20,000 nt of DNA, taken from an uncultured virus (IMG/VR IMGVR_UViG_3300008262_000183) (Duplodnaviria; Heunggongvirae; Uroviricota; Caudoviricetes). The DNA lies in the IMG/VR virus record IMGVR_UViG_3300008262_000183; one strand, given 5' to 3'. Each line of letters starts with the position of its first letter. Within the stretch, counting starts at the first letter, position 1. Shown here one piece after another: positions 5,096 through 12,526 of the stretch. A program made the position numbers and the translations under genes. Below the pieces are notes generated by a model, which had not been told where the DNA came from, made no database searches, and saw only the letters and a program-made list of their open reading frames with translations.

Positions 5096-5548
5096 ATGAA
5101 AACATACATTCTTTTTATCTTCGCTTCCTTTTCTGACCTAGAAGAACTTGAATTTTTCTGTTTTGAACATTTCCCACAACTTTCGATAGGAAGTATTAAG
5201 TATGTTATAGAATCTAGCGGTAATTGTATTATAATATTTGATAGTGATAAGCAAAAGGAACCCCTGGTTAATTCTTTAGATGAAACCCTATCTTTAGAAA
5301 GTATAAGATTTTATATGATTTTCGAAAAAAGTTCAATTTTCTGGTCCAAATTGCCAACAGATCTAAATAATTTCATATTCAAGCCACAGCCCAAAAACTT
5401 AGGCATATTTAAGATTCTAGCTGAAATGGATAAACAACCACTAGAGTCACAATTTAACCTAGATGAGATACTAGAAAAAATCCAAATTGATGGTATTTCT
5501 AGTTTATCCCCCGAGGAAAAAAAATTCTTAGACGATTTTGGAAATTAA
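5096..5548 (+). CDS. Hypothetical protein with a C-terminal DUF6576-like helical motif
   Basis: NLDEILEKIQIDGISSLSPEEKKFL resembles the C-terminal motif of Bacteroidota rhomboid proteases (recalled, not searched). Confidence 0.7.
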   Translation: MKTYILFIFASFSDLEELEFFCFEHFPQLSIGSIKYVIESSGNCIIIFDSDKQKEPLVNSLDETLSLESIRFYMIFEKSSIFWSKLPTDLNNFIFKPQPKNLGIFKILAEMDKQPLESQFNLDEILEKIQIDGISSLSPEEKKFLDDFGN

Positions 5549-5567
5549 AAAAAAAATGTTATCTTAG
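5537..5567 (+). promoter_or_regulatory. Bacteroidota-like promoter upstream of the sigma gene
   Basis: TTTG (5537-5540), a 19-nt spacer, then TATCTTAG (5560-5567). Consensus is TTTG-N19-21-TAnnTTTG. Confidence 0.45.
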
Positions 5568-5588: not shown

Positions 5589-6401
5589 ATGAAGAAAACC
5601 GCACCAATCGTCCGCTCCGAAGACATCCAATTTTACCTAAAGGATTTAAAGAAAATCCCGGTAATAACGCATGAACGAGAAATAGAAATTTTCAGAACCT
5701 TTAAGAACAAAAAAGATCTTTCAAAAACCGAAAAACAAAAATTGGTTGATGAAATTGTTAAAGGTAATTTAAGATTTGTGATTTCGATTGCAAAAACATA
5801 CCAAAACCAGGGATTGGATGTTGTTGATTTGATATCAGAAGGTAATATCGGTTTAATAAAAGCTGTTGATAGATATGATATTGATTCCGGTTTCAAATTT
5901 ATTTCATATGCTGTATGGTGGATTAGGCAACAAATTCTTTATGCTTTAAATGAGTACGCGAGAACAATCAGAGTCCCATCAAATGTTATCCAAGAGGCTC
6001 AAAAATTAAAAAAGAATGAATCTTCTCAGGAAGATCAATATTTTATTGAGCACAGTGAAACATATTTAAATAACATCCCAACAACTGTGGATTTATTTAA
6101 AGAAATAAATGAAGATGGTGATACACTTCTTGAATTAATTATTAATCCAAATGCTGAGTCGCCAGAAAAATTGGCAAATAGCGATGAAGATTTGAAACAT
6201 AGAATCAAATATATGTTGTCATTTTTGGACGAAAGAGAAAGTGCCATAATTGACGGTTATTTTGGGTTAAGCGGTATTGAGAAGAACTTAGAAGACCTCG
6301 GTGAAGAGTTTGGTTGCACAAAAGAAAGAATCAGACAATTAAAAGATAAAGCAATAAAGAAGCTTAGAAATGAAAGCTTTTCTCTATTAAAATATTTATA
6401 A
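5589..6401 (+). CDS. RNA polymerase sigma-70 factor, RpoD/SigA type lacking region 1.1
   Basis: Region 2 NLRFVISIAKTYQNQG...DLISEGNIGLIKAV...GFKFISYAVWWIRQ and region 4 HTH LEDLGEEFGCTKERIRQLKDKAIKKLR. Closely resembles the Bacteroidota primary sigma. Confidence 0.95.
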   Translation: MKKTAPIVRSEDIQFYLKDLKKIPVITHEREIEIFRTFKNKKDLSKTEKQKLVDEIVKGNLRFVISIAKTYQNQGLDVVDLISEGNIGLIKAVDRYDIDSGFKFISYAVWWIRQQILYALNEYARTIRVPSNVIQEAQKLKKNESSQEDQYFIEHSETYLNNIPTTVDLFKEINEDGDTLLELIINPNAESPEKLANSDEDLKHRIKYMLSFLDERESAIIDGYFGLSGIEKNLEDLGEEFGCTKERIRQLKDKAIKKLRNESFSLLKYL

Positions 6402-6699: not shown

Positions 6700-7907
6700 T
6701 GAAAAATTGGTTTAATAAAAATTATAAAACAATAATAATTGCGGCATTTCTTGTCCCAATCATAACGGTAGCGATTGTATCTATCTCACACGTTACTATG
6801 TGGTATGGGATATCAAATCCAATTACATGGGCTGTATACTTATCCATTGGTATTGAGATTGCTGCCCTATCTGCTCTTGCGGCAATATCTGCTGACATGG
6901 GCTCTAAAGTATATTTTCCATTTTCAATTGTAACATTAATACAATTCATTGGTAATATATTTTTCGCTTATTCATTTATCGATATAAATTCACAACCGTT
7001 TAAAGATTGGGTTGATCTAGTTTCACCTTTAGTTTCATTTATGGGTGTTGAACCAACCGATTTTGTTGGTCACAAAAGATTCTTAGCATTTTTTGCTGGT
7101 GGAATGTTACCAGTTATCTCTCTTTCATTCTTACACATGTTAATTAAATTTACGGAAGAAGATAAGCAACAACGTACATCCAAAGATTCTGAACCAGAAA
7201 ATAAAATTGATGCTAGTGATATTGTTTCTGAGGTTTCTAGAGTTAGATTAAGTGAGAGCGACTTAAAAAAATTAGAAGAAGTTTTATTAAATCCACCAAC
7301 ACCAAATGAAGCTTTGGTGAAGGCTGCTGAAAAATATAAACAAAAAACCGATGATGAGATTTTAAAACAAGCTGAAAAAATAAAACAATCTCGTGAAGAG
7401 GTATCATCAGAATCCGCGATAAATAAAGATATCGTTGAAACAGATGATAAGATAAAGCAAAAAGAAGCTTTGATAAAAATGATGGAATTGGATCAAGAAC
7501 TTGGGTTATATGATGATCCAATTGATAATCCATTGATTAAAGAAGATACATACAATATTGCCAAATCAATTCAACAACCAGAGGTTGCGCCAGCTTTGTC
7601 TGATGAAGAAGTTAAGGAAATGTTTATGGATGAATGGGAAAGAAAATTTGATTTGGTTGAAGAGGAATATGTGCCAACGGAAGAAGATATTATATTAAAT
7701 GAGGAATTAAACGCCATTCAAAATGCAGTTGAAAATGAAACTATTCCGGAACCGTTTGCAATACAAGAAGAAGTTCAAAAATTTAATATAGATTTATCTT
7801 ATCCACAAAAAGAAGAAGAGGAAGAATATAATACAATTGAAAATAATGATTCTTTTTGGAGGGACCATTTATCTGAAGATATGGACGAAGATGTAAAAAA
7901 AAAGTAG
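6699..7907 (+). CDS. Multi-pass membrane protein (about 4 TM) with a long acidic C-terminal region
   Basis: Hydrophobic helices in residues ~10-150, then a Glu/Asp-rich tail. Ends GTA-AAA-AAA-AAG-TAG. Confidence 0.85.
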   Translation: MKNWFNKNYKTIIIAAFLVPIITVAIVSISHVTMWYGISNPITWAVYLSIGIEIAALSALAAISADMGSKVYFPFSIVTLIQFIGNIFFAYSFIDINSQPFKDWVDLVSPLVSFMGVEPTDFVGHKRFLAFFAGGMLPVISLSFLHMLIKFTEEDKQQRTSKDSEPENKIDASDIVSEVSRVRLSESDLKKLEEVLLNPPTPNEALVKAAEKYKQKTDDEILKQAEKIKQSREEVSSESAINKDIVETDDKIKQKEALIKMMELDQELGLYDDPIDNPLIKEDTYNIAKSIQQPEVAPALSDEEVKEMFMDEWERKFDLVEEEYVPTEEDIILNEELNAIQNAVENETIPEPFAIQEEVQKFNIDLSYPQKEEEEEYNTIENNDSFWRDHLSEDMDEDVKKK

Positions 7908-8188
7908 AGATTGAAATAACACCTACTCCAACAGATTACATTGAACCGGAACCAATACCAACAGAGTACATTGAACCAACGCCAACACCTACTGAGTATA
8001 TTGAGCCAACGCCTACTCCAACCGAGTACGTCGATCCAATTTATGAGGAAGTTGTTGAACCAACACCTACCCCTACACCGACAGTTTCAAATAAAATTTA
8101 TGTGGATGAACTACCACCAAGATTACCAATAGCTGGTTTAAAAACTTTTCAAAGGAATGTTAGAAATTCAAGACGTAGAAGCATTTAA
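7904..8188 (+). CDS. -1-frame extension of the 6699 protein (Pro/Thr-repeat tail with a basic C-terminus); not in the ORF track
   Basis: Hand translation: VEIEITPTPTDYIEPEPIPTEYIEPTPTPTEYIEPTPTPTEYVDPIYEEVVEPTPTPTPTVSNKIYVDELPPRLPIAGLKTFQRNVRNSRRRSI*. No ATG/GTG/TTG start precedes the repeats, and the frame is bounded by TGA at 7874. Confidence 0.8.
   Translation, partial: VEIEITPTPTDYIEPEPIPTEYIEPTPTPTEYIEPTPTPTEYVDPIYEEVVEPTPTPTPTVSNKIYVDELPPRLPIAGLKTFQRNVRNSRRRSI
7916..8035 (+). repeat. Four degenerate 30-bp coding repeats (xTPTPTEYIE)
   Basis: ITPTPTDYIE / PEPIPTEYIE / PTPTPTEYIE / PTPTPTEYVD. Differences fall largely at third codon positions of the 7904 frame. Confidence 0.85.
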
Positions 8189-8780
8189 CTTACCGAATTT
8201 AAAATCAAAAAATAGAAAATATAAAAAAACCCAAATTCTTCTATATGACACTGGAAGAAAGTTTGATAATTTTATTAAAAAACTTAAATATCGAAAATTT
8301 GGGGATTATAAAGACATTCCACATTTCTGCATAACCAAAACTGGTGAAGTTTATAGTTTTATTGATCCAGAATACGGTTCAGAGACTTTTGGAGAGAGTA
8401 GGATTGATAATAAACAAATAAAGATCGCCATAGAAAACCTTGGCTGGTTGAGCAAAAACACCATAAACGGTATCTACCAAAATTGGTTAGATGACGTATA
8501 TAGAGGTGCCCCACATATAAGAAGTTGGAGAAATCGAATGTATTGGGACCCATATACCCCAGAGCAATTACAAGCGTTAGCGGATCTATGTTTGATACTT
8601 TGTGTTAAATATGATATAAAGTATAGATGTGTACCTTCTTCTGGATATATTGAAAACATAAAAAATATGGGTGGAATAGTTAGTAAATCAAATTTTTTGG
8701 ATATTTATACTGATATAAACCCATCGTTTAATTTTAATATATTTGAAGAAAATGTCAAACAAACAGAACACAGGTTATGA
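8157..8780 (+). CDS. N-acetylmuramoyl-L-alanine amidase (Amidase_2/T7-lysozyme fold)-like protein, Zn ligands apparently substituted
   Basis: QILLYDT, PHFCITKTGEVY, IKIAIENLG, YTPEQLQALADLC, GIVSKSNF...DINPSF. Confidence 0.75.
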   Translation: MLEIQDVEAFNLPNLKSKNRKYKKTQILLYDTGRKFDNFIKKLKYRKFGDYKDIPHFCITKTGEVYSFIDPEYGSETFGESRIDNKQIKIAIENLGWLSKNTINGIYQNWLDDVYRGAPHIRSWRNRMYWDPYTPEQLQALADLCLILCVKYDIKYRCVPSSGYIENIKNMGGIVSKSNFLDIYTDINPSFNFNIFEENVKQTEHRL

Positions 8781-12003: not shown

Positions 12004-12459
12004 ATGGGTATGAAAAAGAGTGAAGATTATTTGGGATTTGTTTCATCTGAAGATTTTAAAAATCAAGCCGAAGTTTGGTACAAAGCGTACAATATAATTC
12101 GTGAAAAAACAGAACTTTTTCACGATTTTGTAATTTCCCTATATAATTTAATAGACAGCACTTACATGGGTGCTGATGTTACAACCACAGAGTTGGATAA
12201 AAGAAACCACTTTGACTGGTGTTGGAAAAAAGTAATTTCAAATTTTTCAAAAGAATCAATCTTTTTCAAAGAAAGGGGTCAACACTATGACTATATCTGG
12301 TTATTTTTTTATGAAGCCTATTACTTAAATGAAACTAAGAACAATAGGATCAAGGAATATTTCGGTAAACTATTCCAATTTGACTACAAAAAGACTCGAT
12401 CAGAACTAGATATGTTAACCGAGCTTTATAAGATATTAGAATCTAATATAAAGAAATAA
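12004..12459 (+). CDS. Hypothetical protein (aromatic-rich, helical)
   Basis: 151-aa ORF preceded by TATATTG (11987-11993). Confidence 0.8.
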   Translation: MGMKKSEDYLGFVSSEDFKNQAEVWYKAYNIIREKTELFHDFVISLYNLIDSTYMGADVTTTELDKRNHFDWCWKKVISNFSKESIFFKERGQHYDYIWLFFYEAYYLNETKNNRIKEYFGKLFQFDYKKTRSELDMLTELYKILESNIKK

Positions 12460-12526
12460 AAAAAAATCCAGTTTTTAGCTTTAAAAAACCAAACTTTTCC
12501 CGTATATTGAGTTAAAATACTTGTAT

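Follow-up and report, generated by a model that had tools for sequence, protein, structure and literature searches.

To our knowledge, the programmed frameshifts of tailed phages are known mainly from tail-chaperone genes and a few capsid genes, and are ribosomal. The candidate recoding site described here has a different setting. It lies in a stretch of 20,000 nucleotides (nt), hereafter the window, from an uncultured virus of the class Caudoviricetes (IMG/VR record IMGVR_UViG_3300008262_000183), and is a run of nine As (A9) at the very end of a membrane-protein gene, the open reading frame (ORF) designated ORF1. Past the run the -1 frame stays open into the neighbouring gene, which encodes an amidase-like protein (Table 1). 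Poly-A slippage sites and -1 frameshift sites are of a known kind; it is the gene context, a membrane-protein gene beside a cell-wall amidase, that is new, and a full-text literature search found no earlier description. The site is conserved in a protein family with 4231 database matches, on contigs of up to about 330 kb.

Several described systems resemble this locus in part. Slippage on nine As or Ts is efficient in vivo, and in the IS630 element of Roseiflexus a hairpin adjacent to the 5' side of the motif stimulates it (PMC5009743). IS1447, of the IS3 family, carries an A9 run after a stem-loop and is characterized by about 16% slippage in each direction (PMC6211511). This arrangement, an A9 run following an mRNA stem-loop at the junction of two overlapping ORFs, where polymerase slippage yields the trans-frame product, recalls the hairpin and A-run of most relatives of ORF1. 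IS1447, however, encodes a transposase and its productive shift is +1, an A being lost, whereas the locus under study concerns a phage membrane protein and a predicted -1 shift, an A being gained, and the hairpin of the window itself is weak. In Citrobacter rodentium, tssM1 encodes an inner-membrane protein and bears eleven As before a stop codon; As added by transcriptional slippage lead to truncated and full-length forms, and both forms, as well as their ratio, are needed (PMC4256274). Here too a membrane-protein gene has a poly-A run ahead of its stop codon, but the proteins are unrelated: tssM1 belongs to bacterial type VI secretion and is a single interrupted lineage whose canonical relatives are uninterrupted, whereas in the phage family the interrupted state is found in 67 of 72 distinct long-form junctions.

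Slippage in Shigella spa13/spa32 adds a 112-residue C-terminal extension to 25–30% of the product and affects expression of the next gene (PMC5009743). The end of that extension overlaps the start of the following gene, as does the one in the window, which ends 29 nt inside the amidase gene; the Shigella case differs in that it sits in a type III secretion operon and slips after 58 codons, and for the amidase a comparable effect is a proposal. The G/GT tail chaperones share with this locus a phage gene in which a small fraction of reading shifts by -1 near the 3' end and yields an extended protein at a set ratio (PMC5009743). Their shift is ribosomal, uses a short heptamer and occurs in tail genes; the gene studied here encodes a membrane protein, lies beside an amidase gene and combines nine or more As with a 5' hairpin. 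For dnaX, a -1 shift on A_AAA_AAG operates in Escherichia coli, and slippage on a run of nine in Thermus thermophilus (PMC5009743); the window combines the E. coli heptamer with the T. thermophilus run length, and would likewise give two products sharing an N-terminus. The gene families are unrelated, and neither a 3' structure, in the eight loci folded, nor a conserved Shine-Dalgarno-like element was found at the phage junctions, where Shine-Dalgarno-like strings were left unscored. In E. coli dnaX, by contrast, a strong stem-loop lies 3' of the site and a Shine-Dalgarno-like element 5' of it, and the shifted product is the shorter one. A further parallel is the holin/antiholin pair S105/S107 of phage lambda, made from one gene through two start codons, the two forms differing at the charged N-terminus. 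Both genes encode a membrane protein directly upstream of a cell-wall hydrolase gene, in two forms (here predicted) that differ at a charged terminus; in lambda the difference is N-terminal and arises from dual starts, whereas here it would be C-terminal, no holin family matches, and a role in lysis is a guess.

The phage family contains its own natural controls: a sister subfamily with an unbroken gene, rare lineages that look as if one A had been added and that are in frame, and more than ten hairpin sequences at one position. It therefore suits tests of hairpin-stimulated RNA-polymerase slippage on homopolymers outside insertion sequences. The locus also matters for annotation, as gene callers split or truncate the gene in essentially every record.

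The junction in the window and in its relatives

ORF1 closes with GTA AAA AAA AAG TAG. The -1 frame has a TGA at 7874–7876 and is open from 7877 onwards, and its earliest canonical start is the GTG at 8102, past the repeats. The predicted long isoform, ORF1 plus extension, has 496 residues with the junction ...DVKKK-VEIEI.... The last 29 nt of the extension, together with its stop codon, overlap the amidase gene, whose ATG at 8157 falls within the RNV codons of the -1 frame. Between 7908 and 8156 nothing resembling a promoter or a terminator was found. The first-pass annotation of this DNA, made from the letters alone, had described the ORF1 ending with A9 at 7895–7903, a -1 frame that opens after TGA 7874 and runs 94 codons to TAA 8188, the lack of a canonical start before the repeats, four xTPTPTEYIE repeats and a basic end RNVRNSRRRSI. 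Re-reading confirmed the coordinates and the frame, Tandem Repeats Finder recovered the repeats, and the basic end is borne out by translation and by the conserved tail of the relatives.

In DNA of this composition (38.6% A) a run of this length is expected: three runs of at least nine As or Ts were observed in the window against 5.9 expected under a Markov-1 model. The A9 run alone is unremarkable there; it is the layout as a whole, conserved in relatives, that goes beyond chance. The other two runs, A10 at 5547–5556 and A9 at 12458–12466, both start within a TAA stop that closes an ORF (5096–5548 and 12004–12459).

Searches with the N-terminal domain of ORF1 retrieved 39 loci from IMG/VR, 80 from metagenomes and 6 from metagenome-assembled genomes (MAGs). 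The 109 loci with a complete ORF1 reduce to 84 distinct junction sequences, and 67 of these carry a run of 9–11 As at the end of the gene. Length and codon register of the run vary: ten As in register 1 (32 junctions), ten in register 2 (23), nine in register 2 (nine) and eleven in register 1 (three). Despite this variation the downstream ORF is in the -1 frame in 67 of 67. It is complete in 63, the other four running off their contigs, and spans 51–152 codons with a median of 86; an RNVxNSxRR-type tail over the amidase start ends 62 of the 63, and the +1 frame is open for at most 38 codons in all. The overlap between the 0 and -1 frames is usually 13–16 nt, that is, the run itself, and in 20 junctions a -1-frame TGA abuts the run, so that the shift is pinned to the run. 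An additional case is an NCBI MAG contig (L126) with A11 and a -1 ORF of about 110 codons. The expectation that homologues would share both run and open -1 frame is thus borne out, and the claim of two isoforms is strengthened, the predicted long form being one residue longer than the roughly 495 first proposed.

Protein records are in keeping with this pattern. Among 120 database proteins listed out of the 4231 matches, 107 end in KK[KN] followed by 0–2 residues, and several of the remaining 13 have KKK or KKN a few residues before the end; an in-frame tail was found in none of the 120. Two loci have an early ORF1 stop, L076 (152 residues, ending ...LHMLVKFT) and L105 (101 residues), and may be broken or differently organised copies; both are counted among the 17 junctions without a run.

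The conserved broken-frame layout of the relatives implies that the phage probably makes both a short and a long form. In the proposed scheme most transcripts would be read straight through to the 402-residue membrane protein ending ...VKKK. In a fraction of them the frame would move by the equivalent of -1 at the A9 run, and the shifted reading would add 94 codons, first a Pro/Thr-rich repeat linker and then the basic RNVRNSRRRSI tail. We infer the production of slipped RNA and long protein, the isoform ratio and the function from sequence.

The nucleotides of the run appear to be held in place. The run is unbroken in 67 of 67 junctions, with central Lys codons that are always AAA, and elsewhere in the same ORF1s AAG makes up 19% of Lys codons and AAAAAA encodes only 56% of KK pairs. 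The first 0-frame stop comes within two codons of the run in 53 of 62 junctions, compared with 22% expected from 0-frame stop density, and within four codons in all 62. The adjacent stop points to selection on the out-of-frame state.

The run length is also reproducible. Thirteen IMG/VR records share one identical A10 junction, and the A9 of the window recurs in a closely related record (G001), in metagenome contigs L045 and L046, in a DNA contig of run X3 and in contigs of the RNA-library runs X16 and X17. No differences in run length were seen among the assembled sequences of repeat samplings of one strain. Among the 72 distinct long-form junctions, five with A10 are in frame. These data bear on the possibility of a sequencing or assembly artefact, in which one A would have been lost from the run and the gene would in truth be one uninterrupted ORF of 496 codons. 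Long homopolymers are error-prone and five relatives were assembled in frame. Such an error would, however, have had to arise again and again, in many independent assemblies that together give 67 distinct sequences with runs of 9, 10 or 11 As in two registers, and always leave the downstream frame at -1; nor does it account for the constant run length in independent samples of the same strain or for the nearby 0-frame stops. Since the site bears signs of selection and the run length is reproducible, an artefact is very unlikely, to the point of carrying almost no probability.

Coding character of the extension

The -1 frame behaves as protein-coding sequence. With the amidase overlap excluded, the 62 distinct loci contain no stop in 4790 codons of the -1 frame, compared with 390 in 4829 codons of the 0 frame and 417 in 4852 of the +1 frame, about 8%. 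Nucleotide differences between related pairs, likewise outside the amidase overlap, fall on -1-frame codon positions 1, 2 and 3 in the numbers 268, 305 and 783, so that 58% are at the third position; the 52 pairs diverge by 1–20% in nucleotide sequence, are not independent, and were aligned under guidance of the -1-frame translation. Reassignment of a stop codon was considered and rejected, the 0-frame stops after the run being a mixture of TAG and TAA and stops accounting for about 8% of codons further along the 0 frame.

A coding -1 frame could in principle belong to a separate small gene of about 90 codons, translated by reinitiation or from a non-canonical start, and in gene calls and ORF lists TTG or GTG starts do appear soon after the ORF1 stop in some relatives (L001 at 4365, L002 at 4329). 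No start codon is conserved, however. The earliest candidate start falls anywhere between codons 7 and 103. In 41 of the 62 distinct -1 ORFs an ATG is lacking up to the last 15 codons, and in 11 of the 62 neither ATG nor GTG nor TTG occurs. The same peptide, moreover, forms the in-frame C-terminus of the membrane protein elsewhere in the family. The sister subfamily, of 228–290 residues, has no A-run and consists of a single ORF that ends in IKRLSY[LV]RRDA and a stop, its last codons overlapping the amidase ATG (GATGCTTAA). Five long-form relatives (L054, L071, L072, L099 and L119) are also in frame through to the RNV...RRR end, and C-terminal parts of in-frame relatives align with the -1-frame peptides of shifted relatives beyond the amidase overlap (E 1e-9 and 3e-8). 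As both the sister subfamily and the five relatives have the two parts in frame, the fused protein is taken to be real. A separate gene would further leave the A-run, the synonymous-site conservation and the hairpin described below without explanation, and is highly improbable.

The in-frame relatives are informative in a second respect. All five carry A10, and in L054, L071, L099 and L119 the removal of one A would bring an immediate 0-frame stop; from their sequences, these four look like natural or assembly derivatives, with one A added, of the out-of-frame layout. Variants with one more A thus occur in nature or in assemblies. This would suit phase variation confined to DNA, in which replication slippage toggles genomes between an OFF state (short form) and an ON state (fused form). 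The constancy of the run on repeat sampling speaks against such toggling. If the extension were produced by rare ON genomes alone, the -1 ORF should decay in OFF lineages, yet it contains no stops and displays a third-position bias, and the 5' hairpin would have no explanation. Phase variation alone is very improbable.

At the C-terminus, 33 aligned tails have invariant K31, R35, V37 and R43. The RNVxNSxRR segment overlaps the conserved N-terminus of the amidase (MLEIxDV), whereas a K-K/R-h-h-S/T motif upstream of the amidase ATG is free of overlap confounding and is common to the sister subfamily. Further upstream, two motifs recur in the extensions of several lineages, (D/E)xLYWE and YDL(E/D)N(N/D)xVI(I/V)P (L001, L006, L024, L048, L052, L099, L119 and others). 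Their sequences suggest a small folded or binding element within an otherwise disordered tail. The extension of the window has neither motif; the tail of its ORF1 has FWRDH instead. A word-based search for longer proteins containing the -1-frame peptide of L001 returned none, which is weak evidence.

The acidic and Pro/Thr-rich linker is hypervariable between strains on either side of the run. Pro/Thr repeats are found within ORF1 in some relatives (L003, L072, L099) and within the extension in others. The X3 run yielded a contig of a co-occurring relative in which both flanks match the window and the 503 bases at 7652–8156 are swapped for 482 unrelated ones.

RNA structure and the proposed route to the long form

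In most relatives a hairpin directly 5' of the run is the conserved structural feature of the junction. By the fold of the 36 nt upstream of the run, 46 of 63 distinct loci fall in the lowest tenth when ranked against control windows taken from the same gene tail, and 44 of 63 when ranked against shuffled sequences; in 39 of 63 a stem of -5 kcal/mol or lower ends 0–2 nt from the run. The hairpins at this place comprise at least ten unrelated sequences, as read from the fold rows. In a clade of 16 sequences sharing a 10-bp stem, 88.8% of the positions are paired compared with 71.8% in column shuffles, a value reached in none of 500. Changes on both sides are seen in 5 of the 10 pairs, covariation scores 0.462 against 0.196 (again 0 of 500), and controls slid along the sequence give 17–49% pairing. 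On the 3' side, pseudoknot-free folding of the 80 nt downstream of eight loci disclosed no shared structure (z between +0.75 and -1.6); the corresponding segment of the window folds at -3.3 kcal/mol, worse than the shuffle mean.

The hairpin and run were also considered as a transcription terminator. This was rejected: an A-run after a hairpin is no U-tract, and in the opposite direction the run comes ahead of the hairpin.

Recoding of some kind at the RNA level, by either of two mechanisms, is very probable. We favour RNA-polymerase slippage as the main route, which on the sequence evidence appears somewhat likelier than all else taken together. On the run, the RNA:DNA hybrid of 9–10 bp in the polymerase would consist entirely of rA:dT pairs, the nascent RNA could realign and one extra A would be inserted; in most relatives the nascent-RNA hairpin directly 5' of the run would assist this step. 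Some contribution from ribosomal -1 slippage on A_AAA_AAG is possible, and the resulting protein would be identical.

Programmed -1 ribosomal frameshifting could instead be the main route. The mRNA would then be faithful, the ribosome would slip on A_AAA_AAG (A_AAA_AAA or A_AAA_AAN in relatives) and the adjacent stop would possibly help. An in-register X_XXY_YYZ heptamer is present within every run (67 of 67), the one in the window is the most shift-prone in E. coli (PMC5009743), a 0-frame stop follows closely in most junctions, and the conservation and coding evidence suit a ribosomal shift just as well as polymerase slippage. The choice between the two mechanisms turns on details of the site. 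A heptamer requires seven As, yet the run is never shorter than nine in the 67 junctions, and since G, C or T may follow the run, the best heptamer itself is not kept. The conserved structure is on the 5' side and abuts the site, and no 3' stem-loop was found in the eight loci folded. As background, hairpins 5' of a slippery site lower -1 frameshifting rather than raise it. Because of the 5' hairpin, the absence of a 3' stimulator in those relatives, the minimum run length and the variable following base, RNA-polymerase slippage is favoured over a dnaX-type shift, and ribosomal frameshifting as the principal route is considered somewhat unlikely. The first-pass annotation had pointed to the A_AAA_AAG heptamer as well as to slippage on A9; across the relatives the conserved feature is an unbroken run of at least nine As and not the heptamer.

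Various observations weigh against the slippage proposal or the evidence for it. The hairpin of the window (row L045) is weak, at -2.9 kcal/mol and 10 nt from the run, and ranks at a fraction of 0.32 among its controls; the hairpin argument for this reason rests on the relatives. The window does carry the A_AAA_AAG heptamer, and a stop beside the site suits a ribosomal mechanism as well. GAGGAG-like, that is, Shine-Dalgarno-like, strings occur in some hairpin 3' arms and might act as ribosomal stimulators. The related sequences are not independent, so that the counts overstate the number of evolutionary events. Runs of A10 are also found in frame elsewhere in the Lys/Glu-rich tails, and therefore such runs arise easily in this composition. 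The conservation of RNVxNSxRR is confounded, because the segment overlaps the N-terminus of the amidase. Lastly, contigs of the RNA-library runs X16 and X17 cross the run as A9 with no indel, at a depth of about 3, where contigs drop minor variants and RNA libraries may include DNA. The sole raw-read run inspected (X24) contained 0 reads of this phage. These read data count neither for nor against slippage.

The hairpins of the five in-frame relatives are weaker or more distant (0, -2.2, -6.1, -6.1 and -6.8 kcal/mol), which fits the slippage idea in a sample of only five. The X16 and X17 contigs end 10–18 nt past the run, at 7913 and 7921, and the next RNA-library contig begins at 7928, whereas the DNA contig is continuous; at a depth of about 3 this may be chance.

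Protein features, neighbouring genes and phage context

Table 1. Features at the ORF1 junction and its surroundings, in window coordinates
Feature	Position	Strand	Basis or remark
Putative lipoprotein gene, coiled-coil part, 95 residues	6412..6699	+	ORF list; conserved neighbour
ORF1, short isoform, 402 residues	6699..7907	+	Conserved N-terminal helical membrane domain (about 1–165) and a variable acidic tail with VKKK at its end
36 nt 5' of the run	7859..7894	+	Hairpin abutting the run in most relatives; weak in the window
A9 run, proposed slip site; 0 frame GT[A AAA AAA AA]G	7895..7903	+	G at 7904
-1-frame extension, 94 codons plus TAA	7904..8188	+	Translation; TAA at 8186–8188
0-frame TAG stop closing the short isoform, one codon past the run	7905..7907	+	Sequence
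Four 30-nt tandem repeats, xTPTPTEYIEP linker units	7910..8029	+	Tandem Repeats Finder: period 30, 4.0 copies, 74% matches, no indels
Basic C-terminal tail GLKTFQRNVRNSRRRSI of the predicted long isoform	8135..8185	+	-1-frame translation; conserved
Amidase_2-like gene, 207 residues	8157..8780	+	Pfam PF01510, E 2.1e-8, 35 bits against a cut-off of 26

The membrane domain of ORF1 matches no family in Pfam, PHROGs or NCBIfam, and no holin. An AlphaFold2 model of residues 1–170 comprises five helices at a pLDDT of 75. The ESM Atlas returned unnamed viral clusters only, and Foldseek retrieved uncharacterised phage homologues alone from BFVD (E 3e-11 and 9e-10) and nothing from the PDB at E of 0.001 or below. 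Residues 171–214 (7209–7340) match Pfam TacA1 over its C-terminal part (PF08681; E 1.4e-6; score 28.6 bits, cut-off 21). Many relatives conserve this stretch, VSRVRLSESDLKKLEEVLLNPPTPNEALVKAAEKY; it is an odd element for a membrane protein whose gene lies shortly downstream of one for a sigma factor.

The flanking genes were recognised in the first-pass annotation as a putative lipoprotein gene upstream and an amidase-like gene downstream, and the Pfam match substantiates the latter. Relatives of the lipoprotein gene begin MKKF...FFK[GA]CG, which is lipobox-like, and the NCBIfam lipoprotein matches of the 95-residue product are weak (E 0.004–0.02, below cut-off). The order sigma factor, small putative lipoprotein, membrane protein and amidase-like protein is shared by the relatives, and the amidase-like neighbour is kept at all loci in which it was looked for on a contig of sufficient length. 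The amidase-like protein has no obvious signal peptide, judged by eye. In the long subfamily it displays an invariant ILLYDTG where the sister subfamily has IILCHTS (loci L027–L044 in the alignment). The His of that N-terminal motif binds zinc in Amidase_2 enzymes, and from its sequence the protein of the long subfamily may be catalytically altered.

Because the gene follows a putative lipoprotein and overlaps an amidase-like gene, a lysis-associated role is suggested for the membrane protein. Traits reminiscent of holins are the predicted helices, the acidic tail, the basic last residues of the long form and the amidase-like gene overlapping its end. Holins are typically far smaller than 402 or 496 residues, and a charged C-terminal region is of the kind that tunes holin timing. 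We tentatively regard the protein as holin-like or otherwise lysis-associated, with two C-terminal forms that would tune the timing or the amount of the coupled amidase; this is rather less probable than its alternatives combined. Judging from the Shigella spa13/spa32 case, translation of the amidase may also be affected when the extension is read. A complex prediction for the amidase with the last 45 residues of the extension scored 0.00 and is uninformative on binding either way.

A bolder version casts a slippage cassette of hairpin and poly(A) run as the ratio setter for the membrane protein, taken to act in lysis, in a large family of uncultivated freshwater jumbo phages. Since the -1 frame ends inside the amidase gene, slipped transcripts alone would couple ribosomes onto the amidase start; they alone would also give the long form, and would thereby time lysis. 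This version is distinctly doubtful. In it, the timer would be based on RNA-polymerase infidelity instead of dual start codons, and slippage would set both the isoform ratio and the dose of hydrolase. More generally, control of the amidase by the long form or by translational coupling would, if it exists, amount to a novel means of timing lysis.

The window looks like part of a large phage. Its gene content, from Pfam and PHROGs matches, includes SbcC-like pieces, a ClpP-like protease, a sigma-70-type factor (5589–6401), a NusG-like protein, a thioredoxin, a glutaredoxin and structural-protein matches. The closely related record G001 is 100% identical over 7500–8500 and is a 43.8-kb fragment rated 13% complete, and related contigs reach 333 kb. 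A blastn search against GenBank phages gave no match. The DNA is found in lake and freshwater metagenomes, and 99–100% of sampled words of the stretch are present in 15 DNA runs from at least nine studies; these words may or may not span the A-run.

MAG contigs carrying the membrane-protein gene fall into bins labelled Emticicia, Flavobacteriaceae, Alphaproteobacteria, Woesearchaeota, Bdellovibrionales and Pirellulales. No host is called, because these labels are mixed and the contigs are binned phage. Bacteroidota bins hold two of the six MAG contigs (L125 and L126), one labelled Emticicia and the other a 248-kb contig labelled Flavobacteriaceae. Along with a G+C content of 31% and an amidase ATG that no spaced Shine-Dalgarno sequence precedes, these two bins are a weak lead towards a Bacteroidota host.

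At the other end of the window, an SbcC/Rad50-like gene is divided between two overlapping plus-strand ORFs in different frames, 2–1498 and 1452–1916. Both match phrog_77, at profile positions 298–747 and 831–954, and their overlap (1452–1498) contains no homopolymer. The division could be a natural split, an error or another recoding site.

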